Of a stretch of 64,000 nucleotides of DNA, positions 4,561-61,883 are shown piece after piece. The notes beneath the pieces were generated by a model that was not told the DNA's origin, ran no database searches, and worked only from the letters and a program-made list of their open reading frames with translations. A program made the translations under genes and the position numbers. The stretch is from NCBI GenBank assembly GCA_000004985.1, contig GG738915.1. One strand, written 5' to 3'. The stretch comes from Naegleria gruberi (lineage: Eukaryota). The stretch's first letter is position 1. Each line of letters starts with the position of its first letter.

Positions 4561-4566
4561 TTTGTG

Positions 4567-5082: not shown

Positions 5083-5443
5083 AATATTTTCTAACGAAAG
5101 ATAAAAGAATTGATGTTCACAATATGAGAAATGTTCTATTTTGAGAGATATAATCGCTGTTAGATCCTCAATACCACAAGAGTCAATTGTTTCTGGAGTT
5201 TTTTACTTCTTCAAGTCAGCAATCATCAAGAAAACAACAACACCTCATCGTAATATAATGCCATCTACAGCGAGAGATCCATCTCCCATTATGACACTTA
5301 ATGAACTCTCTGCCGTTGATGATAAAATGTACAACCCTCAACAAGACTACTCAATCTGTCATTTTCCCTCACTTTAAAAAAAAACTACGAAAACAACAAA
5401 ACCATTCAATAATTGGCCACTTAACCAAGAATTCTTTTTCAAA

Positions 5444-13226: not shown

Positions 13227-13281
13227 ACCATTTCCAAGTCTTCCCAGAACTTTCTGATAATTCAATACTTGGAATGTTGGA

Positions 13282-16440: not shown

Positions 16441-17790
16441 ATGAAAAAGAAAATGAATCCATTTGCCTTGCTTGATTTCCATTTGCCTCATAGATTTTCC
16501 TTACATGGTACGGAATCAAAGTATTTTGATCAGGTGCATGTTACCAAGGCCAATGATGAACATACTACTCTACAGGCAGTTGTTGGTGGTGATTCACCAA
16601 CTTGTTTAAAAGAAGAACAATCTTTATGTAATACTAATAATAATAATGGCGGAAATTGCTCCCCTTGTAATACTATGACCAATATTAGAAATAATACATT
16701 AAATAATCAAAGTGATGGATGTTGTCTCACTGAAGAAGACTCTGAAATATTGAATTGTTACTACAGTTCATCCATGTTTCTTCATGTGATCGCAAGGCAA
16801 GAGCTTGAACGTTTCTTACAAGATTCATCATCCAATTCCTCAAAGGCCAACACTCTGGAAATGATAGAAATGATGACCTTGTATTATTCCATCAAGGCAA
16901 CTTGTGAACTCCAGATGGGACGAATGGACAAATATGAAATCTCGGGAATGAAGGCAATGGAGAATCTTGTCAAACTTTCAAGTACAAACTTGGCGATTGC
17001 TGGAAGCTACCTTAATATGTGCTTGCTTGAATTGTGGAATGATAGATTTGATATTGCAAAATTGTATTTTGCAAAGGTTATGACCTTCAAACCATACTTT
17101 GAGAATGCATCGGAAGGACAGTATGAGTACAAATTATTGAAAGATGACCTCAATATCTCAGTCAAGTTATTGGAGTATACTCTATTCAATGCTGATGTTA
17201 ACAATCTTCATCATTTATTGTTTGAAAGGTTTCTTGTAAATTTACCAACTCTCTTTTCGTATTATAGAACTGGGCAAGCGCTCATTAATGAATGGAACCA
17301 CATTCTAAAGAATCCTCACCTTATCAATTCATCAAATTGTATGCAAGTTCATATGCTGATATTGACACTCTTGAGGGATTGTAAAAAGTATGAAGAAGAT
17401 ACAAAGGGACGATCAGAAAATCTCACTTTACTGTACGACTTTTTGGAAAGTGGGATAACATTGGCTCTGTTATCCAAATGCTCTGAAAAAACGCCCATGA
17501 TTGAGTATACCATTGAATCAAGTGCAAAGAGAATTGTCAAGTCAATTAAGAATCCAAATTTTGAATCTGCTCCATTTGAAGTGATCATTTATCTTTCATT
17601 TGCTGCAGAGCATCACTTGAAAAGGATTCTACAAGGTGTTTTATCAAGAGACTCGATGAATTATGTTGAAATGCTTCGAGATACACTCAATGCATACAAA
17701 TCTCTTCAATCCAGATTTAAAATAGCCAATTTTTACTATTATGGGGGAGTATTCCAACAAGTGGATTTATACTTCTGTAATAAAGCGTAA
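16441..17790 (+). CDS. Paralogue of the adjacent Zn2Cys6 factor that lacks an intact zinc cluster
   Basis: Single 449-aa ORF with a true ATG. It shares the N-terminal MNPF[AL][LV]LDFHL motif and ~330 aa of collinear C-terminal similarity with the 18007 gene. Examples: LYYSIKATCE[LC]QMG, LPTLFSY, KNPHLI[ND]S[ST]NC, ALLSK, YLSFAAEHHLK vs HISFAAEYHLK. Only scattered Cys (GGNCSPCN...DGCC) sit where the cluster would be. Confidence 0.7.
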   Translation: MKKKMNPFALLDFHLPHRFSLHGTESKYFDQVHVTKANDEHTTLQAVVGGDSPTCLKEEQSLCNTNNNNGGNCSPCNTMTNIRNNTLNNQSDGCCLTEEDSEILNCYYSSSMFLHVIARQELERFLQDSSSNSSKANTLEMIEMMTLYYSIKATCELQMGRMDKYEISGMKAMENLVKLSSTNLAIAGSYLNMCLLELWNDRFDIAKLYFAKVMTFKPYFENASEGQYEYKLLKDDLNISVKLLEYTLFNADVNNLHHLLFERFLVNLPTLFSYYRTGQALINEWNHILKNPHLINSSNCMQVHMLILTLLRDCKKYEEDTKGRSENLTLLYDFLESGITLALLSKCSEKTPMIEYTIESSAKRIVKSIKNPNFESAPFEVIIYLSFAAEHHLKRILQGVLSRDSMNYVEMLRDTLNAYKSLQSRFKIANFYYYGGVFQQVDLYFCNKA

Positions 17791-18006: not shown

Positions 18007-19719
18007 ATGGTTTGTTTACCTTCCTTATTAAATCAACCATTTGAAAAAAAATCAATGAATCCCTTCCTAGTGCTCGATTTCCACTTATCGGATGAGAATT
18101 TGTTCTTCAATCCTAACAATTTTCAGCCGGTAACCTTTGCAAATAACTGTACTTTTATTCCACAATTACAACCTCTTCAGACTCAGCCTCAATATATTAC
18201 TTCAACAACAGCATCAATAACTAATCACAATACTTCTATTAATCAACATCCTAATAATATCCAACAACAACAACTCCATCACAACAAGAATGGTTTCAAC
18301 CAACAACAAATACCTTCCTCATTCCAGAACGACTCTGTCAGTAGTTCCACTTCCTGCGATCCGGCCACTACACATGGAGGAAGCCGAAGCAACCACAACT
18401 CTGTTACAACAAATCAAACTGCTCTTGAGAATGTAGCAGAAAATGGCACATCTCAACCTTCAGAAGAGAACGCTAACTGTGATAATGCAGATGGAACCAT
18501 TGCTCCAATATCTTGTGATGCATGTCGTTCTAACCATCGTCGATGTGATCGTATCAGACCTTCATGTCAAGCTTGTAAAATAAGAGGAATCCCATGTAAC
18601 TATAGTATGAACTTTAAGAGAAGAGCCAAGTTTATTAACAATAACAGATTGAAGGATGAAGATGTTGCAATTTTGGATGTTTATTACACAGAGTCTGGAT
18701 ATCACATGGTTTCAAGGACAGAGTTGGAACAATTCTTGTTAGAATCTTATAAGTGTAACGGCTCTTACACAACACAAGATATGAAAGAGATGATAGCCCT
18801 GTATTATTCAATTAAAGCAACCTGTGAGTGTCAAATGGGTCAAATTGACAAGGCAGAGTTATCCGCAAAGCAGGCAAAGGAGTATCTTTCCAAAGTATTT
18901 GATTGCTATACCAGTATGAAGGTTGCTGGAACCTATCTCAACATGTGCTTTTATGAACTGTGGTTTGAGAGGTTACACACAGCCAAGTTTTACTTTCAAA
19001 CTCTACTCTTCTTTAAAGAAGCTCTTGAGAACTCAAAGGAAGAAACAAAGAATTCCATTAGAGAGCATCTAATAATTACAATCACCTACTTGGAGGAGAC
19101 CATATTTAACATTCAGGATAAGAAGAACCTTCATGAGAGAACCTTCGACAGGTTTTTGCTGACACTCCCAACACTCTTCTCCTATTTGAAAACTTCAGAT
19201 TGTATGTTTGGTAGTGACTGGGATTATTATTTGAAGAATCCACACCTAATTGACTCTACGAATTGTGTACAGGTTAATACACTCCTTCAAAATCTATTGA
19301 GAGAATGTAAGAGGTATGAACAGAATAATTTTGGAGGAAATCCAGTTCTGGATTTGTACTATGATGTCATGGAGAGTGGTTGTACATTGGCACTGTTGTC
19401 AAAAACTAAGGAAATGAATTCAATGATGGATTATGTCTTGGAGAGAAGTGCTACTACTATTGTAAATTCGATTAATAACCCTAAATTTGAATCAATGCCT
19501 TTTGAGATTCTTCTCCACATTTCATTTGCTGCAGAGTATCATTTGAAAAAGGTGAGAGAGGGCATATTTATGGGTAGTATGAATAATTGTGATTATATTG
19601 AAATGTTGAGAACTGAATTAAGAGCCTACCAAACCCTACAATCAAGATACAAGATTGCCAAGACTTACTTTTATGGTGGAATATTCAAGAAATTGGATGA
19701 CTATTTCAATAATCAATAA
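18007..19719 (+). CDS. Zn(II)2Cys6 (GAL4-type) binuclear-cluster DNA-binding protein
   Basis: Single 570-aa ORF with a true ATG at 18007. It carries a perfect C-x2-C-x6-C-x6-C-x2-C-x6-C pattern, CDACRSNHRRCDRIRPSCQACKIRGIPC, at nt 18514-18597. The N-terminus is Q/N/S-rich. The C-terminal domain is shared with the upstream paralogue. Confidence 0.8.
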   Translation: MVCLPSLLNQPFEKKSMNPFLVLDFHLSDENLFFNPNNFQPVTFANNCTFIPQLQPLQTQPQYITSTTASITNHNTSINQHPNNIQQQQLHHNKNGFNQQQIPSSFQNDSVSSSTSCDPATTHGGSRSNHNSVTTNQTALENVAENGTSQPSEENANCDNADGTIAPISCDACRSNHRRCDRIRPSCQACKIRGIPCNYSMNFKRRAKFINNNRLKDEDVAILDVYYTESGYHMVSRTELEQFLLESYKCNGSYTTQDMKEMIALYYSIKATCECQMGQIDKAELSAKQAKEYLSKVFDCYTSMKVAGTYLNMCFYELWFERLHTAKFYFQTLLFFKEALENSKEETKNSIREHLIITITYLEETIFNIQDKKNLHERTFDRFLLTLPTLFSYLKTSDCMFGSDWDYYLKNPHLIDSTNCVQVNTLLQNLLRECKRYEQNNFGGNPVLDLYYDVMESGCTLALLSKTKEMNSMMDYVLERSATTIVNSINNPKFESMPFEILLHISFAAEYHLKKVREGIFMGSMNNCDYIEMLRTELRAYQTLQSRYKIAKTYFYGGIFKKLDDYFNNQ

Positions 19720-19913: not shown

Positions 19914-22122
19914 ATGCACAAGGAAGAGGCAGTGTTTGATATTTGTGAAGATAATGTGAGCACACCAACCAGTCCTAAAGCTATTCAGCTTATTGAAACG
20001 TCACCCTCATCAACAGAAGAAGTAAAACAATCCATACCAGTAAAAACAGCCGCGCAATCAAATGAACCAGAGGAAGTTTTAAAAGATCCAAATGGACCTA
20101 CTTTACACTTTTATGATCATTTTCTGATCTTTAAGTGTTTTGGATTTTGGACATGGATATTCATTATTTTGGGAATCTTGGGCTCTATGGGTAATGGTGT
20201 TGTGGCGTTAATATTTCAATTCATATTCGGTGATTTGATCAATATTTTCCAACCTGTGAATGGAGTTATGCCATCAGCTACAATAATGAGAAATGCCATC
20301 TCAGATGTTTGTCTCAAATTTACAGGAGTTGCTATTGGAAGTATGGCTTCCAGTTTCGTATCTCAATTTTTCAATGGGTGGGCCAGTGAAAGAATTGGAA
20401 TCTCTCTCAGACAGGCTTATTTCAATGAATTAACAAGACAAGAGGTTGCATTCTTTGATATTAAGAAAACAGGTGCCCTGACAATTGCACTCAGTGAAGA
20501 TGTTGGAAAGATCCAAGAAGCTTGGACCAGAAAAATTTCTGGTGTCATGCAACACACTAGTACCATTCTCATTGGGTTGATTCTGGCCTTTGTCAGTAGT
20601 TGGCAAATGACTCTCGTTACCATTTCAACCACTCCACTCATGATTTTGATTGGTGTGGTTATGGGAAAATTGACAGAAAAGATTAGTTTTAAATCAGGTG
20701 AAACTATCGCAAAGAGTGCCTCAAAGGCAACCGAAGTTGTCTCCTCATTCAAAACAGGTAAGTTGAAATTCCAATATTTGTTCTAAAAAATTCAACCTAG
20801 TTAAAAGTATGGGGTGCGAAGAAAAGGAACAAGCTCAATTCGCTAACATTTTGAAAAAGCTTCATTTGTATGGCATATTAAAAGCTGGCGCACAAGGTGC
20901 TAGTTTGGGGTCTGAAAGCTTCATCATTTGGGGTACCTGTTCATTGGCCTTTTGGTATGCGTAAGTAGCAGTGTAATTTTAAACCTCAATTTAACAATCA
21001 ACAGAGGTAACCTGGTTGTAGATGGAACTATTGTCATTGGAGATTTGGTAAAAGTTTTTGGTTTGTTAATTTTCAGGTAAGTTAAATTTCCAATATTTGT
21101 ACCTTAGACCTATTCTATAAGTACAGTGTATTTTCAATGGCATTTGTTTTTGAAATGTTACCTGACATTTTCAAGGCCTTGAGCTGTCACAGAGCTCTAC
21201 TTATGGTTATGAAAAGAAAACCAGCCATTCCATTTAAGGGTGGAAAGAGTTTGAGCGATAATGTAGGATTGGTTGAATTTAAAAATGTCAAATTTTCATA
21301 TCCATCTCGTCCAAATGTTACTATTCTTCAAGATTTTACACTTAATGTAAAGACAGGTCAATCAATTGCTATGGTTGGTCCGTCAGGATCAGGAAAATCG
21401 ACCATTGTTGGCTTGTTAGAAAGATTCTATGATCCAGAAGAAGGAGTTGTTTCAATTGACGGTGTAGATATTAAGGAAATTGATCCAAAGTGGTTGCACA
21501 AAAATGGTAAGTATCTTAAAAAATTATTCCTTATCAAGTATTTAAAACTATAGTTGGTATTGTTACACAAGAACCAGTATTGTTCGCTTGTACCATTAAG
21601 GAAAATATTGCTTATGCAGTTGGTTTGGAAAATGTAACTGATAAAGATATTGAACAAGCTGCCAAAGCTGCCAATTGTCATAATTTCATTTTGGATCTTC
21701 CTAATGGATACAATACATTACTCGGTGAAAAAGGTGTTTCTCTTTCAGGTGGCCAAAAGCAACGTGTTGCCATTGCAAGAGCTCTCTTACAAAATCCTAA
21801 AATTTTGCTTTTGGACGAAGCAACTTCAGCTCTCGACACTGAATCTGAAGCTCTTGTTCAAGCTGCTTTGGAAATGTTAATGAAAGGAAGAACCTCCATC
21901 TCCATAGCTCACAGACTTTCAACAGTTCAAAATTGTGATGTCATTTACGTTCTCGTTAAAGGAGACATCAAAGAATCAGGCACTCACAAGGAATTGATTG
22001 GCATTGAGAATGGTATTTACAGAAAATTAGCAGAAAAACAAATGGGAATTGATCAATCTTACGAATCATCCAATGAAAATGTTGGTGATACTTCTTCTCC
22101 AAGTGATTTAAATCAACAATAA
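19914..22122 (+). CDS. ABC transporter, ABCB-type half transporter (TMD-NBD)
   Basis: join(19914..20757,20801..20960,21005..21076,21127..21506,21554..22122), 2025 nt = 674 aa. All four donors are GTAAGT. Motifs: Walker [11 protein letters not shown]-loop VTQEP restored across intron 4, signature [15 protein letters not shown]. Also Walker [13 protein letters not shown] and H-loop SIAHRLST. The TMD shows ABCB-like [23 protein letters not shown]. Confidence 0.85.
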
Positions 22123-31084: not shown

Positions 31085-31966
31085 TCAATCATCCTGACCA
31101 AAGAATGTATCCATCAAATCATCCAATTCGTCTTTACACTCCTTAAGATCATCATCTATTGTTTCTAGAGATGATGTTAATTCTGAGAGATCATTTGTAG
31201 ATTCGTTTTCATTATCTTGATTGAGAAATTTCCTCAAATGTTTTGTAAATTCGAGGCGTACACTCCTTTTTAGAGAGTACAACTCTTCTTCATCAACAAG
31301 GTCGGCCACTTCATCTTCATCGAGCTCATATTTCTTTCTGTTGTGTTCTCTTTTTTGTTTGATTGATTCCTTTGTAGGATTTGCACCATGTGCATTAACA
31401 ATTAATCCATTCTTTATACTCAACCCACCATTGTCACCTGATTTACTGTTCACTTTTTCTGCCAATTTCTCAAAATCAGTTCTCACTCTATCGGTATCCA
31501 ATCTAATTCCATTGAATTGAGCAAGACTTTGCACACCCAACATTCTTTGAGTTTGAATGTACAGTTGAGCAAAGTTTTTACCAGGTAAAATTCCAGCTCT
31601 ACCAATTGTACTCCAACTTCCAACTCCAAATTTCATTATACCAAGACGAAGTATTCTATTTTCCTGTTCATTCCAACCAGGAGCTTGTGAAAAATTGAAT
31701 AAACTTTTACTTTGTACGACACCTTTTTTCCTTCCTTCTCCTCGGGATGATGTTGACTTCTTTTTAGATGTTGATGTCGTCGATGTTACAAGAGAATCAG
31801 ATGATGACGCTTTTGAAGTAGTGTGAATATTCTTGTCATGATCTGTTAGTGTTGATGAAGATTGTGTTTTTCGATTTGATTTTTCATCGTCTGTAGATTT
31901 TACTTGACGTTTTCTCTTCATTTTTTTAAAATTAGATTTGGCGCTCGAATTAACTACATTTTTCAT
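31085..31966 (-). CDS. Myb/SANT-like domain protein with a basic S/T-rich N-terminus and an acidic C-terminus
   Basis: The ORF track start (32065) is a TTG lying antisense to dynein exon 1. The first in-frame ATG is 31966 (MKNVVNSS) and the next is 31921 (MKRKRQ). SANT/Myb-like core: WNEQENRILRLGIMKFGVGSWSTIGRAGILPGKNFAQLYIQTQRMLG. The start choice is uncertain. Confidence 0.6.
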   Translation of the reverse strand: MKNVVNSSAKSNFKKMKRKRQVKSTDDEKSNRKTQSSSTLTDHDKNIHTTSKASSSDSLVTSTTSTSKKKSTSSRGEGRKKGVVQSKSLFNFSQAPGWNEQENRILRLGIMKFGVGSWSTIGRAGILPGKNFAQLYIQTQRMLGVQSLAQFNGIRLDTDRVRTDFEKLAEKVNSKSGDNGGLSIKNGLIVNAHGANPTKESIKQKREHNRKKYELDEDEVADLVDEEELYSLKRSVRLEFTKHLRKFLNQDNENESTNDLSELTSSLETIDDDLKECKDELDDLMDTFFGQDD

Positions 31967-31985
31967 AAAAACAACAACAAGAAAA

Positions 31986-34900
31986 ATGAGAGAAACAAAG
32001 AGATCCCCATCCGCTGCTTCTGCCCTTGATGAGAGTGCAACGGTGCAGGGACTTAGTAGATTCAAACACTTTCATAGTGCAAGTGCTCCCGAATCTTTAG
32101 GAGTAGATAAACTTGAGGTAAGTGAATTCAAAACGAGGAAGTAACCAACAAGCTCTCTTATAGTACAAACCTAAGAATACATACAACGTTAGACCAAAAA
32201 CTACAATACAACCTCAAAAATTAAAGATACCTAAGGAATTACAACAATTTAATCATTTAGACCCATCTAGAAACACAAGTACAAAGAAGAGGTAAGAATA
32301 TCATAACTGAAATCAATTATTAAAAAATGATTTAATTAAACAGAGAAACTAGTACTACAACAACAAAAAGAGCATCAGCACAAGAAAAATCAAGAAAAAC
32401 ATTGGAAGAAAGACCACCAAAACAAGCCAAATATACTACCAGTGTCAGTAGATTGTCTGAATTGAACTCTTTGAATGTTAGTGCTAGAATCGGAGCCCTC
32501 AAACAAATGGATGTTGAAGAAGGAACAATTGATGTAGCTAGTTACCCAAGACTTTTAATTATTAACAAGGAATTTTCGGAAGAGGAAAAGGATATCATCA
32601 TGAGTGGGTATGTATTAATAAGAGGAATTTAATTAATAATTATGAATTGAACAGACAAGAGATTGAAAGCAAGAGCAAATTTCTACCATTAGAATTGTTT
32701 GATGACGAAGAAATATTTGAAAAATTCACTATTGAAGATCTTCTTTCGAATAGCTACATTGTACAGTCTAAGTTTTATACTGGCGCCAAATCAGCTTATG
32801 AAAAATCTTATAAGGTTTGTTTCATATTATTACTAGTGATCTAATCAAAAAACAGTGGGCTCGTTGCAGAGTTCTTGAATATAATCCTGATGAAAGAAGT
32901 TTCCTTATTGAATGGTTAGATTCTCCAAACACAACTGGATATGAAATTACAACAACTGATGAAAACAATGACTCTCCAACCACTACTAATGGCAGAAAAC
33001 AAAAATGGGTAAAAAGATTGAATTTATTAGTTCATGGAGATGAAACTTTTGAATTGAGAATAAGATTTGCACAAATGAGAAGAAAAAAGTTTGAAGAGAA
33101 AATGTTTTATTATCTTCAAATTGACAAGACTATTACTGATGACTTGATAGATATTACCCCTTTTGAAAAACAAATTTATGAAAAAATTTTGAAGCTTGTT
33201 GCAAATGAATCCCAATTCCTTTCTAGGCATGTTCCAGTCATTGAAAAATATGTTGATGAAGCAAAAGAGCATTACAAAATTTCAATGAAAGAGGCTATAT
33301 TTTTGTATTATCTGAACAGTAGAGAAGAATATGAAAAGTATGAAAAATATTTATGGTGCAAAGAAGAGCTAAGGAAAAATAATATGACAGCACCATGTTC
33401 TGGTGTTATTGAGGTACCAGCCTATAACTATCAAGCCATTCACGATATTATTGAACAAAATATCTTTTATACTCACCTTGATTTGATAACAGCAATGCAT
33501 AATATTCACTCTCAATTATTTATTTTGCTTAAAAGCTTAAAGGAAGATGGAAAGAGTATGGACTTGATTACAACACAAAAATGTGATACTCCTTGTGAGT
33601 TAGGATCATTTTTGGAGCTCCAAAGAGATACATTACAATTATCCATGAAAAGAATTAAGGAAGATTGGTGCCAAAAAGTTATTTCGATAGTGCAAAATGA
33701 TCTTGATAGATTTTTCAACTTTTTCGAAGATGATATTGAAAGATTCGAAAGCTCTAGAATGAAGAAGTTCTTGAGATTGACCAATTTCGTTCTTTCAGCT
33801 CAGTTAAGAGATTATGTTTTTGATGAACTTCACAAGTTGAGAGACTTTATAATACCTTATAGATACAGAGGATCGGATCATTTTGATGCCAATGAAGTTT
33901 CTGGATTTGAACCTTTATTTATTATCAAGATTGTGGAGAAAATTGAAAATGGAGAATCTAAGATTGCATTCGATCCTCCACTCGAATCTGTATTAGATGG
34001 CTTACGACAAATATTTTATGGAGTGCTGGAGGAAACCAATTTTATTCCAGGTATAGGAGAGACTCTCTTCCCATTATTGACTCTTAAGCCAGAACAATAT
34101 TGTATAAATAACTTAGAACTAAGATTAGAAAAAGACACAAAAGGTTTATGGAAAGATATTCAAGAAGTAATTACTTCCAACTTTAGAGAACCAGAAATGT
34201 TGCTCTCCTTATATAAGGGATATGAACATTGCTTAAAGTTGGATCCAGTCGCGTTTGCTACAGAATTTTATAATGAACATGTTGGCAAAACAGAAATGTC
34301 AAAACTTCTTTCAATCTTTAGAGAAGAATTGGCAAGACTTAAAAGTGATTCAGAAGAAGTGTATAACATTTCAACTGATAATGTCAATTTCAACTTATTG
34401 CGAGTAGATTGCAGTGGTATCAAAAACTCACTATATTTGAGAACCGATGGTACTGCAAAAGAGTTGATGAAATTAATATCAAAATGGAGTACTGAAGAGA
34501 GTAGTAAAATTACTCAATCTTTCCGAGATGTATATAGCAAAGTTCAAATCATACCTCAAACTGCTGAAGAACTGGACTCTTTAAAGAAGTACTTAACAGA
34601 TTGCACAAAGGAAATTGAAAGATTACAATCTCAATTCGCAACAGTCAAATCAAGTGTCCATTTACTCTCAGATTTTTCATTCAACCTCGACATGGATGAT
34701 TTTACAGTATTTGTAGATACTCATTCATGGCCAAAGAAGGTTTATGGACTTCTTGAGGATAGTACTATTAGACTTGAAGAAGACAAGAGAAAATTCATGG
34801 ATGAATTACAAAGAGATATCAATAATCTTCTCAGCAACTTGGATTTATATGAAAAGATTATTGAACGATTTGCTGTTTTCGATGATTTAGAAAAGACAGA

Positions 34901-37900
34901 CCAATACTATGAAAAGGTAAAGGATATGGAATCTAAATTGGAGGAAGCAAAGAAAAATTCCGAATTGTATAATAATCGTGAAAGAATGTTTAATATGAAC
35001 ACAACAGAATTTTCCAAACTGAAGGACTTGGAGAAGAACTTTAAACCTTACTTTGACTTATGGAGAATTGCTTATGAAAAGGCACAAAACTTTCCAAAAT
35101 GGAATGAAGGCACATTCATGAATTTGGATGCCAAGTTTATTGATGAATCATTAAGTATGTGGCAATCTACATTGAAAAATTTAGAAAAGAACTTGCAACC
35201 AAAGGACGAAACTGCAAGAATTATTACAAGACAAGTGAAGAAGGAGGTTGTAGCATTCTTACTTCACATGCCACTTATCAATGCCTTGAGAAAGGATGGT
35301 CTTAGACAAAGACATTGGCAGAAAATTGCAAAACTTCCACTTGAATTTGGAAAATCCACAGCCCAATTGGATATTGAAAGTATTAATATCATGAACTTGG
35401 GAGACTTTACAAAGATTGGTTTCGAAGAAAAACCAATTTTAGAAAAGATTATTGATATTTCTACATTGGCCGAGAAAGAAGCAGAAATTTCAAAGAACCT
35501 CGAAAAAATGTACTCTGCTTGGAAGAATGTCAATTTCCATCTTGAGAAATACGGTATTACATACAAACTTGTTGAATTGGATGAATTACAAGTCCTTCTC
35601 GATGAACAAATTGTTTTAACTCAAGGTATGAGAGCTTCTCCTTACGTAAAGGAACTTGAGACTGAAGTTATTGCTTGGGAAAACAAATTATTAGAAAGAC
35701 AAGATATAATGACCGAATGGATTAAGTGTCAAGTTGCTTACTTGTATTTGGAACCAATCTTCAGTTCTCAAGATATATCAGCACAGCTTCCTGATGAAGC
35801 AACCAAATTCGGTATGGTTGACAAAATGTGGAAGAATGTTATGGAAGTTACCAATAAGGTCAAAGTTGTCGCTCAAGTTGTTTCTGATGAAAATATGAGA
35901 GATAACTTTGAAACAGCCAACAAGAGATTGGAGCAAATCCATTTTGGTTTGAAACAATATTTGGAAACCAAAAGAAGAGCCTTCCCAAGATTTTACTTTT
36001 TATCAGATGATGAATTGTTGGAAATCCTTTCTGAAACTAAGGATCCACTCAGAGTTCAACCCCACTTGAAAAAGTGTTTCGAAGGTATTGAAAGGTTAGA
36101 GTTTGACAAGGAAGGAAAAATCGTTGCCATGCTCAGTAAACAAGGTGAGCGTATTCCATTCCAAAAGCATGTAATACCAGCAGAAAAGAATGGCAGAGTT
36201 GAGTTGTGGTTGTTAGAAATTGAAAATGAAATGAAGGGTAGTTTGAGACACTCTATTGAACAATCCATCAATGCATATGCTGCTATTGCTGGTAATATTG
36301 ACAAGAGAGGTCAATGGATTCTTGCATGGCCTGGTCAAGTGGTATTGACTGTAAGTCAACTTTTCTGGACAAGAGAAGTAGAAGAATCTATCAAAGCACA
36401 AGGTGTTAAAGGAGTTCAAAGATATTACTCCAAGATGACCAAACAACAAAAATCTCTTATTGAACTTGTAAGAGGAGAAAATTTAACTGCTTTGCAAAGT
36501 ATCACACTTGGTGCAATGGTCGTTATTGATGTTCACGCAAGAGATGTTGTTGCTGGTTTGGTGAAAGAGGCAGTCGGAGATATTTCAGACTTTGAATGGC
36601 AAAGTCAGCTCAGATATTATTGGGAAGATGTTAAAGATATCAAGGATGGAAAGAATCAAAACCAAATTGTTGTTAGACAAGTTACTGCTGAAATTAACTA
36701 TGGATACGAATATTTGGGTAATCAAGAAAGACTTGTCATTACACCTCTTACTGACAGATGCTACAGAACACTTACAGGTGCTCTCCAATTATTTAAGGGC
36801 GGTGCTCCTGAGGGTCCTGCTGGTACAGGTAAAACTGAAACTACAAAAGATTTGGCTAAGGCTATCGCTAAACATTGTGTAGTTTACAACTGTTCAGATG
36901 ATCTTACCTATGAGTCTATGGCTCAATTCTTTAGAGGTTTGGCATCAAGTGGTGCTTGGTCATGTTTTGACGAATTTAACAGAATTGAATTGGATGTCCT
37001 TTCTGTTGTTGCCCAACAAATTCAAACTATCCAACTTGCTGTAGCTAGTAGAGCCACCAGATTCTTCTTTGAAAATATGGAAATTAACATGAATCCAACT
37101 TGTGCTATTTTCATTACAATGAATCCTGGTTATGCTGGAAGATCTGAACTTCCTGATAACTTGAAAGCTCTCTTCCGTCCAGTCGCTATGATGGTTCCTG
37201 ATTATGCCTTGATTGCAGAAATTTCATTGTTTTCTTATGGATTTTTGGAAGGTCGTAAACTGGCTAGAAAGATTGTTTCTACTTATAGATTATGTAGTGA
37301 ACAATTGTCATCCCAAGATCACTACGATTATGGTATGAGAGCTGTTAAAGCAGTATTGGTAAGAGCAGGTTCATTAAAGAGACAATTTCCAGATCTTAAC
37401 GAAGAACAACTCATGTTAAGAGCATTGAATGACGTAAATCTTCCAAAATTCGTTTCTGCTGATATCCCATTGTTCAACGGTATCATCAAGGATTTGTTCC
37501 CAACTACAGAACATCAAAAGGTTGACTACTCTGCTCTTGAAAACGCCCTTATTCAAACATGTGCTGAAATGAATCTTCAACCTGTTCCTTACTTTATTCA
37601 AAAGATTATCCAACTTTATGAAATGATTATTGTAAGACACGGTTTGATGCTTGTAGGTTTCCCAATGTCAGGTAAAACAGCTTCCTATATTGTTTTAAAG
37701 TCTGCTTTGGAGAAATTAGGAGAAAAGATCAATCTAAGAGTCTTATCACCAAAGGCAGTTTACGGTGGAAATCTATACGGTTATAGAGATACAAAGACCA
37801 AAGACTGGAAAGATGGTGTTCTTGCTCTTCACTTCCAAAAGTTGAGTACACTTGCAGAAAAGGAAAGAAAATGGCTCATGTGTGACGGTCCTGTTGATGC

Positions 37901-40900
37901 TATTTGGATCGAATCTATGAACACAGTTTTGGATGACAACAAGAAGCTTTGTTTAACATCTGGTCAAATTATCAAAATGGGTGAAAACATGAACATGATG
38001 TTTGAAGTCCAAGATTTAGCTGCTGCTTCGCCTGCAACAGTTTCCAGATGTGGTATGGTTTATTTGGAAGCCGAAAAGCTTGGTTCTTGGGAGCCTTACC
38101 TAGCAAGTTGGCTGAGCAGTAAGGAATTCCCTCAAGCTCTTAGAGAATCAAAAGATTTTGAAGAAGTGACAGAATTATTTAAAACATTATTCTCCACTTT
38201 CATTCCTCCTGCTATCAAAATTTTCAAGTCTCACTTTATGGCCAAAGCATATGTTAGAGTTAAAAGTGATGCCATGTTGGTGAATTCATTGATTAACATT
38301 TTGCAAAGCTTGATGGATGAATTTGCAGATCCAAAAGTGATCCAAAATTACATTAAGGACAAGTCAATTATTCTTGAATGCCTTTTCCAATTTGCTTTAA
38401 TTTGGTCAGTTGGTATTGTTTCTGTTGATAGAGTTAAATTTGATCAACTTTACAGAAACATGCTGGAAGAAAGGGCAAGAAATAAGGTCTACAAATTCCA
38501 AATACCAATGCCAGAAAAGCCAAACACACTCGTTTTCGACTTTGTGTTTGACAAGAAGAGTAGAAAATGGGTTGAATGGACTGCCTCAGAATATGCTCCT
38601 AAATTTGCTGTTTCACCAACAGAAGAATTTAGAAATATTATTGTCCCAACAATGGACACTATTAGATTCCAATTCATTCTTAAAACACTTCTCGACCACG
38701 GTAAGCAACCATTATTTGTTGGCCCAACAGGTACTGGTAAAAGTGAATATGTAAAACAATTTTTACTTAAACTTGGAGCTGGTTCAAGTGAAGAAAAGGA
38801 ACAAAATAACGAACCAAAGTCAAACTTCCTTCCTGCCTTTATCAATTTTTCAGCCACCACTACACCAAGTCTTATTCAAGATATTTTGGAATCCAAGCTC
38901 ACAAGAAGAAAGCAAGGATATATTGGTCCACCAATAGGAAAGAAGACAATTATTTTTGTCGATGACCTTAACTTGCCAACATTGGATGATTATGGTGCAC
39001 AACCAACCATTGAATTATTGAGAGAATGGCAAGACAGAGGAGGCTGGCATGAAAAATTCAGCAAGCAAGCAGCCTTTACACACGTAGTTGATGTATTGTT
39101 TGTTTGTGCTATGGGTCCTCCTGGAGGTGGTAGAAACGAAGTAACTCCAAGATTTATTCGTCACTTCAATGTTATTGGTCTTACCTCATTTGACAACCAA
39201 ACATTGACCACCATTTTCTCAGATATTATGGATTGGTTCCTCTCATCCAATAGCATTAATACTATCAGTAAGATTTTGGCTAGACAAATCGTTGTTGGAT
39301 CCATCAATTTATTTAATAATGTAATTGAGCAATTCAGACCAACACCAGAAAAATCTCACTATACTTTTAACTTGAGAGATTTATCAAAGATTTTCCAAGG
39401 TGTTTGCAGTGTTGGTCCAAGACTTGATGGATCAGAATTGGAGAAGGTATCTCTAGTCAAGATTTGGGCCCATGAGGCCACAAGAGTTTTCCACGATAGA
39501 TTGATTAATGAGCAAGACAGAGAGAGTTTCTACCAATTACTTGATAAGGAACTTCAAATTGGTGAAATCAAATATATCATTGAAGAAACACCTTTTGACT
39601 ATAGAAATACTCTCTTCACTTCTTTAACTCATGATTCTTGCGAAAGATTCAAGGAAGTTGTCTTGAACAAGACCTCCAATAATCCAAAGGTTGCTGATAT
39701 TTCCAAACTACATAATATCTTGTCATCTAAATTGGAAATTTACAATGATTCACACTCAAAGATGGATCTTGTATTATTCAACTTTGCTATTGAACATATT
39801 GTTAGAATTGTAAGAATTATAACTCAACCTGGTGGTAATGCTCTCCTTATTGGTGTGGGTGGCAGTGGTAGACAAAGTTTAACCAAACTAGCTGCTTTTG
39901 CTGCTGAATACAAATTGTTTGGTATTCAATTAACAAGATCTTTCACTGTTTCTGAATGGAAAGATAAGATGAAAGAATTGTTGATTAGTGTTGGTGGTGC
40001 CAAGAAAACTCAAACTGTCTTTTTATTCAATGATAACCAAATCAAGTATCAAGAATTTTTAGAAGATATTAGCAGTATTCTTAACACTGGTGAAATTCCT
40101 AACCTTTTCGATAGAGATGAATATAAGGATATTTGTGAAAGTCTGAGAGCACATGCAAGAAATGAAAACAAAGGACAAACACCAGAAGAATTATACAACT
40201 TCTTTGTTGATAGATGTAAAGAATGTTTGCACATTGTTCTTTGCATGAGTCCAGTTGGTGAAAATTTGAGAAATTATTTGAGAATGTTCCCTTCATTGGT
40301 AAATTGTTGTAACATTGATTGGTTCAGCTCTTGGCCAGACCAAGCCCTTCATGCTGTAGCTCAAAAGTTTATCAAGAGCATTAACGAAGTAACAGATGAA
40401 GAATTGGATAATAATGTAGAAATACCAAAGGATGATGCATTCGAAAAAGATTTTGACAAGTATGTCGATATATGTGCCTACTTCCACAATAGTTCCACCG
40501 AGCTTTCTAAGCAATTCTTATTCAAGATGAAGAGACATAACTATGTTACACCAACAACTTATCTTGGTCTATTGAAGAACTTCTCCTCACTTGTAAAAGA
40601 AAAGAGAACCGAGTTGCAAACTTTGAGAGGAAAATTCGAGTTGGGTCTTCAAAGAATTGCTGAAACCGATAAGGATGTTAATGAAATGCAAAAAGAATTG
40701 GAAATTTTGCAACCAAACTTGATTGAACTTTCCAAACAAAATGAAGAATTATCCAAGAAGATTGAAATTGAATCTCAAAATGCAAACGAGAAGGCTAAAA
40801 AGATTGAAATTGAACAAGAAGAAATCAACGCACAAGTTGCTAAGAATGAACAAGACAAGGTATATTGTATGGAAGAATTAGCTCAGGCTGAACCAATTTG

Positions 40901-43900
40901 GATTGAAGCCCAACAAAAGGTCAAAGATATCAGTACTGCCCAAATTGCGGAAGTCAGAGGTATGCAAGCTCCTCCAGAAGGTGTTAAAATGGTCCTTAAA
41001 GCTATCTGTATTATGAAGGGTGAAAAAGTTAAAACCATTGATGATGGTCTTGGTAACAAGTCTAAAGATTGGTGGGGTGCATCCAAGGAAATGATGTCAA
41101 GAAAGGATTTCTTAAAATATATTAAGAATTTTGATATGGGAGCATTGAATCAAGAAATTGTTGGTACTCTTACACCTATTTTGGCAGAAATGGATGTTGA
41201 AAAAATCAAACGTTCCAGTGCTGCTGCCTTTGCCCTTAACGAATGGTTGAATGCCCTAGTTAAATACTTTAGGGTTAACAGTGTTGTAGAACCAAAGAGA
41301 CTTGCATTGCAAGAAGCTGAACAAAAGTGTGCTGAAGCCGCCAGATATCTTGCTGAAAAGAAGAGGGAATTGGCTGAAATTCAAGGAATGATTGCACTCA
41401 AAGAAACTGAAAGAAAAGAATGTGAAGCAAAGAAGAATCAACTTGAACATGAATACCAACTTGTCAGTGTAAAGTTAGAAAGAGCTACAAAACTCATTGG
41501 TTTATTGGAAGGAGAAAAATTGAGATGGCAAGAAACATTAGCTAAAATTATGGAACAACAAACATGTATTAATGGAGACGTTATTTTAGCCTCAGGTATT
41601 ATTTCCTACCTTGGAGCCTTTACTTCTGAGTACAGAAGAAAGATTCTCAAGAAGTGGTCCAACAAATTGACCCAACATGGTATCAAATTCTCAGAAAATT
41701 TCACACTTTCAACAACTTTGGCTGAATCTATGGAAGTTAGAAATTGGATTATCAAGGAAGGTTTACCATCAGATGACTTTTCAGTTGAAAATGCTACTAT
41801 TGTCAAGAGAACTACCAATATTTGGCCACTGTTCATTGATCCACAAGGTCAAGCCATGGCCTGGATTAAGGAGAAGGAAAAACAACAAAAGAAAGATGCT
41901 GATTCCTTGTTAATCATTCAAATGTCCAACCCCAGTCTTATTAAGAGTTTGGAAAAGGCCATTACTCAAGGAACTACAACTATTGTTGAAGGTGTTGGAG
42001 AAGAATTAGATCCAGCATTGGAACCACTCTTAACTCAAAGAACTTATTACATTGGAGGTGTAAAGTATATCAATCTTAGTGATACTCCAACAATTTATAA
42101 TGATAACTTTAAACTCTATTTGGTTACTAGTCTTTCAAACCCTCACTATCTCCCTGAAGTTTCAACTAAAGTTCAAATTATTAACTTTATGATTACACCA
42201 AATGGTTTGGAAGAGCAATTGCTTGCTATTGTTGTCAAGATTGAAGAAAAGAAATTGGAAAGTGAAAAGAACAATTTGGCTGTACAGAATGCTAAATATC
42301 AAGAACAATTGAAGCATTACCAAGATAAGATTTTGCAATTGCTTGTTGAAACAACAAAGGAAAAATGTTGGATGATGACACTGTCATTAATACCCTCTCA
42401 TCATCAAAGCAAACCTCAAGAAAAATTGAACAAAAACAAATTGAAACAAAGAAGACTGAAAAGGATATTGATACCAAGAGAAACCTTTACCGACCAGTTG
42501 CTGAAAATGCAAGTACCTTATTCTTTGCTATTTGTGAATTGCCAAACGTTGATCCAATGTATCAATATAGTTTGAACTGGTACCAAGATTTGTTTACCCA
42601 ATGTGTAGTTGAATTGCCTCACGAAGAAAATAGATCCACCATTCAAAAGATTGAACAACTTAGAGACTTCTTTACTCATCAAATGTATACCAGAGTATGT
42701 AGATCATTGTTCCAGAAGGACAAGCTACTCTTCTCGTTATTATTGTGTATTCAATTGATGAGAAAGAAGAGCTTGATTGATCATGAAGAGTTGAAATTCT
42801 TACTTACAGGTACTAGCTCTGTCGTCAACTCTGATGAAACCACAAGAAAATTGCCAGAATGGATCACTCAGAACATGTACAATGAGTTATGTCAAATTGA
42901 TGGAATGTCAAGTGTCTTTAAGAACTTCAAACAAGAATTTTTCAATCACCTTGAAGCTTGGAAGAAGGTTTATGATTCATCCAAGCCTAATGAAGAACCA
43001 TATCCAGATAAATGGAACAACCTCTCAATATTACAAAAGATGATGGTTCTTAGAATTATCAGACCAGACAAACTTCTTCCAGCAGTTGAAACCTTTGTGG
43101 AAAAGAATATGGATAAGAGATTTATTGAGCCAAGTCAATTCAATTTGAAGGTTTCTTACATGGAATCTACTCCTGTAAAGCCACTCATATTTATTTTGTC
43201 ACCTGGTGTGGATCCTATGGAAAATCTTCGTAAATTTGCTGACCAAGAAGGTGTAGCCTTGAAGAGTTTGTCACTTGGTCAAGGTCAAGAAGAATTTGCT
43301 ATTGAAATGATTAACCAAGGAAGCTTCCAAGGAAATTGGGTTGTTTTACAAAACTGTCACGTTTTGCTTTCTTTCTTACCAAAGTTAGAAAAGATCATTG
43401 ATGATTTCGCCAGAAATGAAAATAAGCTAGCTGCAAATTATAGATTGTGGCTCACAAGTATGCCTAGTGAAAAATTCCCAGTCAGCGTACTTCAAAGAGG
43501 TGTAAAAATTACTAATGAGCCTCCTAAAGGTTTGAGAGCAAACCTCTTACAATCTTGGAATAGCGATCCTATCAATGATGCAAAATACTTTACTGGTTGT
43601 AAGAAGAGTAGGGAATTTAAGAAGTTATTGTTCGGTTTGACATTCTTCCATTCCTTGGTTCAGGAGAGAAGAACATTTGGTCCACTTGGTTGGAATATTA
43701 GATATGAATTTAACGATTCTGATTTGAACATCTCCTTGAAGCAACTTCAAATGTTTTTGAATGGAAAGGATTCAAATGTTCCTTTCAAGGCCCTTACCTA
43801 TTTAACTGGTGAATGTAATTATGGTGGTAGAGTTACAGATGACCATGATAGAAGAACTCTTATGGCAATTTTATCTGACTTCTATAATGAGGAAATTATT

Positions 43901-45049
43901 GAGGATGGTTACCAACTTTCACCTTCCGGTATTTACACTGTTCCAAATGGAGATAAGAAACATAGTGAATATATTCAAACAATCGAAAAATTCCCATCAA
44001 GCGAAACTCCAGAAGTATTTGGTTTGCACGAAAACGCTACCATTAGTAAGGATCAAACTGAGTCTAAACTAATGTTTGATGCATTACTTACCACTCAACA
44101 AAATAGTGCTCCTGAAACCAATGATGAAGATGACATTAATGAAAATTCTCATGAAACTGAAGTACTTTACGAATTAGCAGCAGATATCTTGACTAAACTC
44201 CCTGACAACTTTATTATTGAAGGAGATGGTGGCGCAGAGGCCAAGTTCAAGGTTGACTATCACGAAAGTATGAACACTGTATTTGTACAAGAGTTAATTA
44301 GATTTAACAAACTTTTGAATGCTATTAGAAACAGTCTTCAACAATTACAACTTGCATTGAAAGGTCTCACAGTCATGAGTAGTGATTTGGAACAATTGAG
44401 CAAGTCTCTTTCAAATGGTAAGGTACCTCTTGTATGGAGCAAGGCCAGTTATCCTTCTAGAAAACCTCTCAGAACATATATCCAAGATTTGATTAAGAGA
44501 ATTGAATTCTTTAATAATTGGTTTATTCATGGTAAACCATCAGTGTATTGGTTGAGTGGTTTCTACTTTACCCAATCATTCTTGACAGGTGTAAAGCAAA
44601 ACTTTGCCAGAAAGAATAAGATTGCTATTGACCAAATTGATTTTGAATTTGAAATTTTGGACAAGTACTATGAAGAAAACATTTCCTTGCCAGAACCAGA
44701 ATGTGGTTGCTATGTTTATGGATTGTTCTTGGAAGGTGCTGCTTGGGATAGAAAGAAGAAGTGTTTGACAGATCCAAGACCAAAACAATTGTTTGATGAA
44801 ATGCCAATAATTTGGTTCAAACCTGTAGATCGTAGTGTTGAACAAACAGAACCAACAAGTTCAGAGGTTAAAACCAAATCTAATACCTATGTTTCACCAC
44901 TCTACAGAACTAGTGAAAGAAGAGGTACCCTCACCACAACTGGTCACTCGACTAACTTTGTGATGAGTATCAAGTTGCCAATGGCCTCAGATAATAATGA
45001 AAAGTATTGGATTAAGAGAGGATGTGCCTTACTTTGCCAACTTGATTAA
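31986..45049 (+). CDS. Axonemal dynein heavy chain, inner-arm (single-headed) type, ~4292 aa, with one frame discontinuity
   Basis: join(31986..32117,32164..32291,32344..32607,32655..32814,32856..42365,42365..45049). Four 5' introns (46, 52, 47 and 41 nt; donors GTAAGT, GTAAGA, GTATGT, GTTTGT) keep the frame. After that there are ~12.2 kb without introns. AAA1 P-loop [20 protein letters not shown] (36813-36836); GAPEG is the inner-arm flavour. AAA2 GFPMSGKT (37656), AAA3 GPTGTGKS (38721), AAA4 GVGGSGRQS (39852). A coiled-coil stalk and a conserved C-terminal domain follow. The two long ORFs (frames 0 and 2) join only by a -1 shift at the A5 run 42361-42365, giving ...TTKEK|MLDDDTVINTL... Confidence 0.9.
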
Positions 45050-55114: not shown

Positions 55115-56605
55115 TTATTTGTTGTAGAAGAGGGAATAACCGTAGATTAGTCTAAGGATAATGTTTGAGCTAGTTTCTTCCACCAATCCAGTATCAGTGT
55201 TGTTAAGGGGTTGAGTATTGGAGAGGAAGATTTGTCTAATGACTGGCTGTAGGGAGTTAGAAATGACCTGAGAGAGAGGAATCTTACTACTGTGAATATG
55301 GAGATAGTTGTATCCATTCTTGAGGGTTGTGAATTTAATTCCCTCATTTCTGCAGCCATTTAGATTAAGTAATTGATTAATGGGAAAGTTGTGAATGAGT
55401 ACCATGATGGAGGTGATGATTTTTCTTATGGAAACAATGCTAAAGAAGAGGAAAGAGAAACTCAAGTAATAAACTGCAACAGTTGGATAGAGGAATATGC
55501 AAATGGTAAAGAGAATGATGCCTAGAATGAGTTGATCATTAGAATAGTCCTCACAATTGTCCAATCTCTTCTTGAGCGGATTAGCCTTCTTTCCTCTAAA
55601 TAATCTCCACAATGAAAATATCAAATGAATGAGTTGGTTGTAGAGTCTTGAAATTATTCTGTAAAAGAGTAAAATATTGATCGATACAACAAGTAGCAAA
55701 TCACAAACAAGTGCCAACATGGTCGATGCTCCCATCAGGCAAGAGGAGGATATAGACCATATTAAAACTCTAAACAAATCTACTGTGAAAAAATCTGAGA
55801 GATAGTAAAAACCAAAACTCAATAGAGTTTGCCACCATCTCAATCCTCCGAGTGCCATTTGTCCCAATATGATATTCAACTGTTTGTTCAATTTAATACC
55901 TCCTGGATTACTGTCCTTTATCAACCATTCAAAGTGTTGAAACATGTTAATTAAAATGTACTTGTAGAGAGAAATAAATCGTTTTTTCAAATCAATTAAT
56001 GTTGATTCATCCAATTTCCAAACATGATAGATTATCAAAAATCCTAATATCAAATCTAAAATCATATTAAAAGACATTCCAATCCTACTAATATTCTCCA
56101 AATGTTTCTTCAATATACTCGAATTGATAGGAGTGTTAAATAGTGAATATTCTATTGCTTCTCTTCTCGCTTTGGAATTTCCATTATTTAAATGTTCTAG
56201 TGATGACAAAGTTTTCTCCTCATCACGATCCAAAGAATATTTGTACTTTGTATTCCTATCATAATAAATATAATAAATATTATTAATTGAATAATCATCG
56301 GAATGATCAGTGAGAATTATTCTCGAATTTTCAAGAGTAAAATTGAATTTTGAATGATATAATTTAGGAGTGGTAGTACTGCTCTGATGTAAATATCCAA
56401 TACTAGTTGATGGATCACTATTTGCAATCAAATCTTCTTCTGATGAAGCAAGTAATGGTTTTGCATCTTGAATGATAACATCCAAAATTGATTCACTCGG
56501 TTGTCTGATAATTCCTTCCACAATGTGTAGTTTTGAATTTTGTGTTATGCATTCCTTTTCAAATCCGAACGGTATGTAAATATTCAGAGAAAGCAATCGT
56601 GCCAT
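55115..56605 (-). CDS. PIGQ: PIG-Q/GPI1, a subunit of GPI-GlcNAc transferase
   Basis: Single 496-aa ORF with a true ATG at 56605. Family blocks: NPGGIKLNKQLNIILGQMALGGLRWW and LFRGKKANPLKKRLDNCEDYSNDQLILGIILFTICIFLYPTVAVYY. Several TM helices are present. Confidence 0.75.
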   Translation of the reverse strand: MARLLSLNIYIPFGFEKECITQNSKLHIVEGIIRQPSESILDVIIQDAKPLLASSEEDLIANSDPSTSIGYLHQSSTTTPKLYHSKFNFTLENSRIILTDHSDDYSINNIYYIYYDRNTKYKYSLDRDEEKTLSSLEHLNNGNSKARREAIEYSLFNTPINSSILKKHLENISRIGMSFNMILDLILGFLIIYHVWKLDESTLIDLKKRFISLYKYILINMFQHFEWLIKDSNPGGIKLNKQLNIILGQMALGGLRWWQTLLSFGFYYLSDFFTVDLFRVLIWSISSSCLMGASTMLALVCDLLLVVSINILLFYRIISRLYNQLIHLIFSLWRLFRGKKANPLKKRLDNCEDYSNDQLILGIILFTICIFLYPTVAVYYLSFSFLFFSIVSIRKIITSIMVLIHNFPINQLLNLNGCRNEGIKFTTLKNGYNYLHIHSSKIPLSQVISNSLQPVIRQIFLSNTQPLNNTDTGLVEETSSNIILRLIYGYSLFYNK

Positions 56606-59720: not shown

Positions 59721-61481
59721 TTAATGGGTTTGGTTCTTCTGTTTGGCAACATCAGCCATATATCTGGCAATTTGTTCACAAATTTCTTGGTCTGGGGTAT
59801 TGAGATACTTGAACACAAATGCGTGACTTAATAAATCTCTACATGAGTATCTATCTTCAGGCGATACTTTGAGGCAATTCTTGATAAAGTCTTCAAATAC
59901 TTCTGAATATCCCTTTCCTTCGAGTGGGTTCTTCGTTTCTACATTGTTAATTTCGTCCATTACATCGAAATAGGAACCAGATTTGAATGGGAATTCGCCC
60001 AATGCTAACTCCACCAATGTCACACCCAGAGACCAAATATCACTATTGTAGGAGTGAGGTTTTTCATTAATTCTCTCAGGTGACATGTACATGATTGTTC
60101 CTTGACATGTATTCCATACGTGTTGATTTCTTAGTCCGTATTTTCCTCCTTCGGTTACTTGGTTATTCTTTTTAAAAATACCTGTCAAACCCATATCACT
60201 AATTTTCACTTCACCATTCAGCTTGATGAGGATATTTGCTGGTTTCTATTTCAATATAAATTAAATAACAATTTCAATAAAATTATTACATACCAAATCT
60301 CTATGTACAATCTTTTTTCTAAAATGTAAGAAATACAAGCCTTTCAGCACTTGGAATGTAATCATTTCCAAAATTCTTTCTGGAATTTTAATTCCAGCAA
60401 GGGACTCTAAGGAGTTTCCATCCATATACTCTAATAAAATATTAATCTTATTATCTGCAAAGTTGGCATTGTAGAGCCTCAAAATGTTCGAACATTCAAC
60501 ACAATTATATAAAGTTGTAATTTCAGATAAAATTAATTTAGGTTGAATATCCTTTGCTAATTTGACAATCTTTTTGGCATATAATTTTCCAGTGTTATCT
60601 TTGACCAATTCAACTGTGGAACTTGCACCTTCTCCGAGTTTCTTAATAGTTTCCAAATCAGAAAATGACACAGAAGTAATCTTCTTTTGGCCATGTTTCT
60701 TCCTTTCAAAATGTAACAGATTGGCACCATTGGTTTGGTTCATGAAACGACTGGATTTTGTTGGTGAGGTGATAGATTCCAAATGATGTGTAGCTTTAAA
60801 TGGTGATTGGGATTGTGTTTGGGTACAAATTGTTGATGGCATATTTGTGATACCCTCCTCTGTAATTTTAACATCATCAATCCAAAAAGCACCAGAGGCA
60901 GTTATTTCATAATCTACTTGGGAGTAAGTGCCTTCATCATTTTTAGGTGGTGGTTTCAGTGGTTCTTCTGCTTTCGTCTCAACAACTTCTGCCTTGGTAG
61001 CGTTCAATAGTAAATTTGTTGGTTTGAATTTCTTTTGTTTCTTCTTCTTTTCAATTTTACCTTTTGGTTTATCCACGTTGTTTTGAATTTCTTCTGCCTT
61101 TGCTTCAATAATTTGTTTCTTGCCCATGCTCTCTCTCATGTGAGAGGAAAAGGATGGTGTGGAATTGTTATTGGCATTACTACTATTAACATCCACCGAG
61201 TGATTGGAATTATTAGCATTCAAGTCATCACTAGCAATCATTGCTGAGAAGAAAGTACTGGATGATCCCGATGAAGTTGGGGTAGGTGTTGAAACAAGCA
61301 TCGGATCATTGAATAAATCTAATTCTCCACCATCATTAACTGTTGTTGATGTTGCAGGTGTTTTCATATCAGTGAAGGATGCAAACAAATCCTTGGCAAA
61401 TTTGTCATCAAAAAACGTGTTGGATTTGTTGAGAGGTTGTTTCTGATTCTTGTCAGGACTATTGAAAAATTGGTTTATCAT
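59721..61481 (-). CDS. STE7/MAP2K-like protein kinase with a long low-complexity N-terminus and an expanded activation segment
   Basis: complement(join(59721..60245,60294..61481)), 1713 nt = 570 aa. The 48-nt intron is GTATGT..ATAG in phase 0 and splits HRDL|KPANILI. The ORF track start is a TTG; the ATG is at 61481. Motifs: LGEGASSTVELV, YAKKIV, HRDLKPANIL, DMG (in place of DFG) and GTIMYMSPE. There are ~30 residues between DMG and SPE. Confidence 0.7.
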
Positions 61482-61883
61482 TTTGATCAATGTGTTATTA
61501 CAAGAAATTCTTTCAAATATTATAATTATTACTATTGCACTATGAATATGTTCTTTTGTTACAGATTTAGAAGAACATGTGTTGCCGAGCTATTTTTATA
61601 TAAATGTAAAAAATTGAAAGCCTCCTCGATTTTCAATATTTTTTTCTTTAGACATATACAAGTTCCAAACGCCACTCGAACAGGATGTTCAAAGCTTTTT
61701 CTTCAGAAACACATGATCATTGATAATAGTTAGATTTGGAATAGATATTTTGATCTAAGAAGCAGTGTACACCAATAAATATGAAAATAATGAGCTTTAT
61801 TCTACTACACATGTACGTAATAGATGAATTTCAACAATTTTGACTTTATACCCATTACACTCTGTTATTTAGTTGTGACAACT

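Follow-up and report, generated by a model that had tools for sequence, protein, structure and literature searches.

Programmed −1 frameshifting in eukaryotic and viral genes depends on a cassette composed of a slippery heptamer of the form X_XXY_YYZ, a spacer of 5–9 nt, and a pseudoknot or stable stem-loop. A dynein heavy chain gene of Naegleria gruberi, interrupted by a single −1 change of frame, resembles such cassettes in having a Lys AAA codon that is able to re-pair, a spacer of 5 nt, and a hairpin beyond it, but it differs from them in its non-canonical heptamer and weak stem, and in that the structure and the need for a shift both lack conservation. Homopolymer indels of draft assemblies offer another comparison. 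As in those cases, a single base has been lost at an A run, the flanking open reading frames (ORFs) are conserved, and repair restores the orthologous peptide; the N. gruberi case departs from them in that the assembly is Sanger-based and the lost base may be a G lying outside the homopolymer. Homopolymer miscounts are less typical of Sanger data than of 454 or nanopore data. A dynein split between genes is also known, namely the cytoplasmic dynein of Ustilago maydis, which two genes encode, and offers a parallel. With respect to the encoded protein, the closest described relatives are the single-headed inner-arm dyneins DNAH12, DNAH7, and DNAH3, together with the minor inner-arm dyneins of Chlamydomonas, which the gene resembles in domain order and best matches; the copy described here differs from them in that, as written in the window, it has a one-base break inside AAA5, while its Naegleria orthologues are unbroken. 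Positions below refer to the window, i.e., the whole 64,000-nt stretch of contig GG738915.1 that was analysed.

Architecture of the dynein gene and position of the break

By domain content and sequence similarity, the broken gene is predicted to encode a DNAH7/DNAH12-type heavy chain of single-headed inner-arm axonemal dynein. The intact protein comprises ~4300 aa, and its coding sequence, with the 5′ exons included, ~12.9 kb. When the N-terminal sequences of the N. fowleri and N. lovaniensis orthologues were compared with the window by tblastn, four short 5′ exons on the + strand (together 31986–32829) were located, at ~31986–32117, 32158–32292, 32342–32608, and 32647–32829; these boundaries are approximate, and the introns among the exons measure ~40–50 nt. 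The giant exon that follows is read in two frames. Its part A (32817–42365, +; frame 0), delimited from the ORF list, its translation, Pfam, and the N. fowleri orthologue, covers the tail, AAA1–AAA4, the stalk, and most of AAA5, with Pfam matches to AAA_8, MT, and positions 1–200 of the 222 of AAA_9. Part B (42365–45049, +; frame −1; 894 aa), assigned from Pfam, solved relatives, and the orthologue, contains the end of AAA5, AAA6, the AAA lid, and the dynein C-terminal domain, with matches to Dynein_heavy, AAA_lid_11, and Dynein_C. Each part is 81% identical to the N. fowleri orthologue. The Pfam domains of the window gene run in the order AAA_8, MT stalk, AAA_9, Dynein_heavy (D6), AAA_lid_11, Dynein_C, and, together with colinearity to syntenic orthologues for which DHC_N2, AAA_6, AAA_7, AAA_8, MT, and more are listed, they make up a full dynein motor architecture. 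The break cuts AAA_9, which corresponds to the AAA5 module, at profile position 200 of 222; with one base added, the match is complete (1–222).

Among solved structures, human DNAH12 and DNAH7 are the best matches of the 894-aa part (E about 1e-273 over the whole part). By bit score, DNAH12 and DNAH7 (913) are followed by DNAH3 (885), DNAH1 (762), DNAH6 (615), DNAH2 (605), DNAH10 (477), and the outer-arm dyneins (~400–460), a ranking that places the gene with single-headed inner-arm dyneins rather than with outer-arm, I1/f, or cytoplasmic ones. The junction region is 42–46% identical to homologues named DNAH7, DNAH3, DNAH12, or DNAH1. A cytoplasmic dynein, including the Candida-type DYN1 suggested by codon usage, was considered and rejected, as the C-terminus is axonemal and the Gpi1 protein encoded nearby is that of a Naegleria.

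Frame 0 is open for 3252 aa (32817–42575, +), and the 894-aa ORF (42365–45049, +), which lies one base back from frame 0, overlaps it. Dynein homology changes frame at GGAAAAATG, where the A5 run occupies 42361–42365 and the ATG of the downstream ORF 42365–42367; the junction reads ACA ACA AAG GAA AAA, followed by TG TTG GAT GAT GAC. In alignments with 16 distant homologues and three Naegleria orthologues, homology passes from ...LLVETTKEK in frame 0 to MLDDDTVINTLSSSK in frame −1, and the crossing at A5 that had been noticed in the initial annotation is seen against both sets. A TGA in the downstream frame (42347–42349, +), 15 nt 5′ of the ATG, confines the switch to the 18 nt between 42350 and 42367. 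The break itself, GAAAAATG (42360–42367, +), lacks one base relative to its counterpart GAGAAAATG in the orthologues, both by DNA alignment and by raw comparison. Past the A run, frame 0 reads through a tail of 69 non-homologous codons (CWMMTLSL...INIV) to a stop at 42573–42575 (tail and stop, 42366–42575, +); if the break were real, this tail would terminate a truncated product. On recheck, the positions first reported for the ORFs, the A5 run, the TGA stop, the spacer, and the hairpin arms all matched.

An intron at the junction was excluded. No residue is missing there, and the switch is confined to 18 nt, as against introns of ~40–50 nt elsewhere in the gene. GT..AG pairs that would restore the frame do exist nearby (e.g., 42345..42409), but every one of them would delete conserved residues; the original contention that no intron fits is thereby borne out. 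Transcriptional slippage was likewise rejected, on the general knowledge that A5 is far below the run lengths known to cause it.

The orthologous site in other Naegleria

The repaired junction region, used as the query of an exhaustive profile search, retrieved C9374_004696 of N. lovaniensis, an uninterrupted protein of 4158 aa with 78% identity. It clusters with FDP41_001379 of N. fowleri (4287 aa, also uninterrupted) and with a 4055-aa single ORF from an independent Logan assembly of run SRR29240419, which matches N. fowleri exactly at the site. C9374_004696 and FDP41_001379 are ~81–82% identical to the window gene and colinear with it, and they share its neighbourhood and junction peptide, but their ORFs are continuous where that of the window is broken. 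The gene order unknown (−), dynein (+), ZIP transporter (−), unknown (+) is common to the window and three orthologous loci (L054, L055, and L056). The N. lovaniensis accession is a PacBio assembly, and that of N. fowleri ATCC 30894 a Nanopore assembly (PMC9928731). In a metagenome scan with the junction peptide, 53 dynein loci were found, all with at most 57% identity over the best segment and, where the whole junction query was spanned, at most 50%; no conspecific or near relative was among them. A word-indexed protein search with the junction region gave only fragments of at most 918 aa and at most 46% identity, none of them near-identical; the Naegleria orthologues at full length came up only in the exhaustive search. 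Exact look-ups of the 894-aa ORF, the ZIP ORF, a 322-aa neighbour, and the Gpi1 protein gave no entry, and the collections searched yielded no second N. gruberi sequence.

All three orthologous sequences encode the junction peptide LLVETTKEKMLDDDTVIN without interruption, and it equals the repaired window peptide; the longer peptide that spans the site in all three is ...HYQDKILQLLVETTKEKMLDDDTVINALSSSK..., and TTKEKMLDDD is common to N. lovaniensis, N. fowleri, and the Logan sequence. At the DNA level, the orthologues have AAAGAGAAAATG (12 nt, with an A4 run) where the window has AAGGAAAAATG (11 nt, with an A5 run), or, over a wider junction, ACAACAAAAGAGAAAATGCT where the window has ACAACAAAGGAAAAATGTT. 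A DNA alignment of 142 columns contains a single 1-nt gap, with the flanking frames otherwise intact; beyond this gap the sequences differ by substitutions alone, most of which affect the third base of a codon. Comparison of the orthologous site had been proposed in the initial annotation as a check, and its outcome is that the related Naegleria are in frame and exactly one nucleotide longer (GAG-AAA-ATG). The break is best explained as a non-programmed loss of one nucleotide in the giant exon. The reading ranked first at the outset, a one-base loss at the A run, is upheld by the continuous orthologous ORFs, the same peptide, and the one extra nucleotide.

The identity of the lost base is less clear-cut. 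MAFFT places the alignment gap opposite the G of GAG, and loss of this G from GAG-AAA-ATG or of one A from GAA-AAA-ATG gives an identical window sequence. Conserved Glu sites with GAG in N. fowleri number 69, and N. gruberi has GAA at 56 of them, a preference that makes an A6 precursor likelier by ~4 to 1 before weighting for the homopolymer indel rate. The loss was probably A6 to A5, with the G of GAG as the alternative. The earlier claim of A6 instead of A5 holds with regard to the loss of one base, since the orthologues are continuous and one nucleotide longer, but the base need not be an A, since the orthologues read GAG-AAA-ATG.

Apart from this position, ~4050 residues of the repaired protein align colinearly with the N. 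fowleri orthologue and reveal no second defect, and the 894 codons that follow the break contain no stop. Amino-acid identity to N. fowleri is 0.808 before the break and 0.810 after it, and the fraction of identical residues encoded by the same codon is 0.546 and 0.573, respectively. Constraint downstream of the break, judged from these values, shows no sign of relaxation or decay, and the equal conservation on both sides implies that any real lesion must be very young.

Recoding and separate translation of the two parts

Were the A5 template genuine, full-length dynein might be produced from it by programmed −1 frameshifting, i.e., by a slip on G_GAA_AAA with a hairpin 5 nt further on. After slipping back one base, tRNA-Lys can again pair with AAA, and translation would then give the conserved TTKEKMLDDD; the spacer TGTTG (42366–42370), at 5 nt, falls in the usual range of about 5–9 nt. 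It is followed by a hairpin predicted by folding (42371–42405, +), in which the arms GATGATGA (42371–42378) and TCATCATC (42398–42405) form a perfect 8-bp stem around a 19-nt loop; by a strict count, perfect 8-bp stems that begin 5–10 nt further on are rare in the window (0.6% of positions). The heptamer, however, departs from X_XXY_YYZ: re-pairing is restricted to the Lys codon in the A site, and the P-site tRNA-Glu would be required to decode GGA. The same ORF contains eight canonical heptamers in frame, all of them away from the break, in agreement with the description of G_GAA_AAA as non-canonical in the initial annotation.

The hairpin is weak, energetically unremarkable, and not conserved, and this also argues against a frameshift signal. 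Alone, it has a folding energy of −6.8 kcal/mol. An 84-nt fold reaches −12.1 kcal/mol (z = −1.63), but 11 of 200 shuffles fold as well, so that by energy the structure is not significantly more stable than chance, and the folding energy of the downstream 60 nt ranks 6th of 35 among the runs of five or more A in the same gene. Two thirds of the stem consist of GA/TC pairs forced by three Asp codons (GAY) that face three Ser codons (TCN), which confirms its attribution to Asp/Ser codon repeats. In the orthologues, the stem is broken: GATGACGA and TCGTCTTC pair at 7/8 positions, GACGATGA and TCTTCTTC at 6/8, and the minimum-energy folds differ.

Conservation of the need for a shift is lacking as well, as N. 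lovaniensis, N. fowleri, and the Logan sequence are in frame with an A4 run and require none. No family matched in an Rfam scan of the site, where a sub-threshold snoR128 on the opposite strand (E = 0.35) was taken as chance. The literature library that was searched contained nothing on a frameshift in this gene, nor on programmed frameshifting in Naegleria. Inefficient recoding would, moreover, seem to bring no obvious gain for a motor that is required in stoichiometric amounts in the axoneme. Programmed frameshifting is accordingly considered very improbable here, and its lower placing in the initial annotation is sustained by the non-canonical heptamer, the weak and unconserved stem, and the in-frame orthologues. 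In a more specific form of the idea, A5 would be real and homozygous in strain NEG-M, and full-length dynein would still result from a −1 slip by a single tRNA, tRNA-Lys, on GGA_AAA_A, aided by a species-specific GAUGAUGA/UCAUCAUC hairpin. Such recoding would be confined to the lineage and would have followed a deletion within an A6 run that synonymous change had created; the chances of this are equally slim.

The two parts could also be conceived as a functional split dynein, with the 894-aa part translated alone from the ATG at 42365 and assembling with the N-terminal fragment. The ATG of the downstream ORF is located exactly at the junction, and the ORF is fully conserved, but this ATG is an ancestral internal Met codon that is present in the unbroken orthologues too. 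The cut, furthermore, falls within the AAA5 fold (at position 200 of 222 of Pfam AAA_9) rather than between modules. Initiation at an internal site ~10 kb from the start would be unexpected for a eukaryotic mRNA, and the site has no sign of an intervening promoter or of a separate gene. A split dynein is thus the least probable of the readings considered, with a likelihood close to nil.

Draft error or real lesion

In the mechanism proposed here for the non-programmed loss, one base would have been dropped from the Sanger shotgun consensus of strain NEG-M, most probably in an A6 run. The organism itself would possess an intact gene of ~4300 codons and would make the protein by ordinary translation, with GAA-AAA-ATG (or GAG-AAA-ATG) as the functional reading, encoding ...TTKEKMLDDD.... 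A 6-base run is seldom miscounted by a Sanger consensus at good coverage, and this counts against a draft error; the ~12.9 kb of coding sequence, conversely, would offer a large target for a rare error of the draft consensus. The only N. gruberi genome in a 2023 pangenome paper is that of NEG-M, a Sanger shotgun draft of 1,977 scaffolds and 35% GC (PMC9928731). The GC content of the window agrees with that of the draft. We infer a consensus miscall in the Sanger draft as the origin of the break with about even confidence, and it is the step from a lost base to an error rather than a lesion that limits this confidence.

Somewhat below even is the likelihood that the base is really missing, either through a very recent frameshift mutation in NEG-M or through one of two alleles that was caught by the assembly. 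The break is, after all, present in the sequence as given, and A6 runs are natural hotspots of replication slippage. N. gruberi has been reported to be diploid and heterozygous (PMC9928731). NEG-M is an axenic laboratory strain from an isolate dated 1969, and, given that the amoebae divide without flagella, an inner-arm dynein that is one of several may be under relaxed selection. A heterozygous allele or a fixed lesion would leave the window sequence just as an error would. Such a lesion would, however, have to be extremely young, as ~4050 aligned codons lack a second defect and conservation is equal on either side, and the site, the peptide, and the synteny are kept in other Naegleria species. 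Rough reasoning gives the two origins a similar order of probability for a coding sequence of this length, with the draft error slightly ahead because the gene is otherwise flawless and such an artefact is simple.

If the lesion were real, the gene would yield a truncated motor, with ~3180 aa from the giant exon preceded by the part that the 5′ exons encode and followed by 69 aa of nonsense sequence. This product would be devoid of the AAA5 end, AAA6, and the C-terminal domain, and the gene would amount to a null allele or nascent pseudogene. It would then be a small case of flagellar gene decay, or of a segregating null allele, in a long-cultured amoeboflagellate strain. The biological significance of the break is otherwise small. 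It is an ordinary one-base defect with no recoding signal; wider interest would arise only under the very unlikely recoding scenario. Its importance lies in annotation, where a one-base defect in the N. gruberi reference causes the gene model for an inner-arm dynein heavy chain of ~4300 aa to be split or distorted, and the correct protein can be restored by one base added at 42360–42365. Elsewhere in the window, near the dynein, a Gpi1 ORF (55115–56605, −) identifies the species, as its product matches a Naegleria gruberi protein with 100% identity; the cluster to which this protein belongs contains no other member.

Exon structure at the 5′ end of the dynein gene

The inner-arm axonemal dynein heavy chain gene begins with four short exons at about 31986-32117, 32158-32292, 32342-32608, and 32647-32829, which are joined by mini-introns of ~40-50 nt (window 31986-32850) and followed by a giant exon of 12.2 kb. 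Exon 1 overlaps a mechanical ORF on the minus strand (31085..32065), the true start of which must lie further in.

The N. lovaniensis gene model

Four stretches of the N. gruberi protein, 14, 6, 64, and 15 residues long, are absent from the protein annotated for the N. lovaniensis dynein locus (L054, gene 3001-16148). Over the same range the N. fowleri alignment is nearly gap-free, with 10 gap positions, and a single continuous ORF spans the region in the Logan assembly made from an N. fowleri-like run. The absent stretches look like introns falsely predicted within the giant exon of the gene model.

Stem and snoRNA-like match at the frame break

Just 3′ of the one-base frame break, one pair of the 8-bp stem at 42371-42405 is doubly changed, being U-A in N. 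gruberi vs. C-G in N. lovaniensis (window compared with L054 and the N. fowleri locus L055). Pairing fails at another position of this stem in N. lovaniensis and at two positions in N. fowleri. Both changes are synonymous, falling at the third positions of Asp and Ser codons, and the double change therefore looks coincidental.

Antisense to the frame break, the Rfam C/D-box snoRNA family snoR128 matched 42339-42412 (-) with 23.8 bits (E = 0.35), below the gathering score of 40; since this sub-threshold match lies within conserved coding sequence, it was taken as a chance match.

Other ORFs in the window

Same-strand stop-to-stop ORFs that abut or overlap in different frames occur at 13282-15568 (-), 16133-17790 (+), and 21086-22122 (+), and two ORFs in the same frame (59721..60245 and 60261..61589) are separated by 15 nt at 59721-61589 (-). 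The adjoining ORFs at these four places are probably exons with short introns between them. A further ORF of 570 aa, at 18007-19719 (+), encodes a Zn(2)-Cys(6) binuclear cluster domain of fungal type (E = 2e-7 to Pfam Zn_clus), here situated in a heterolobosean genome.
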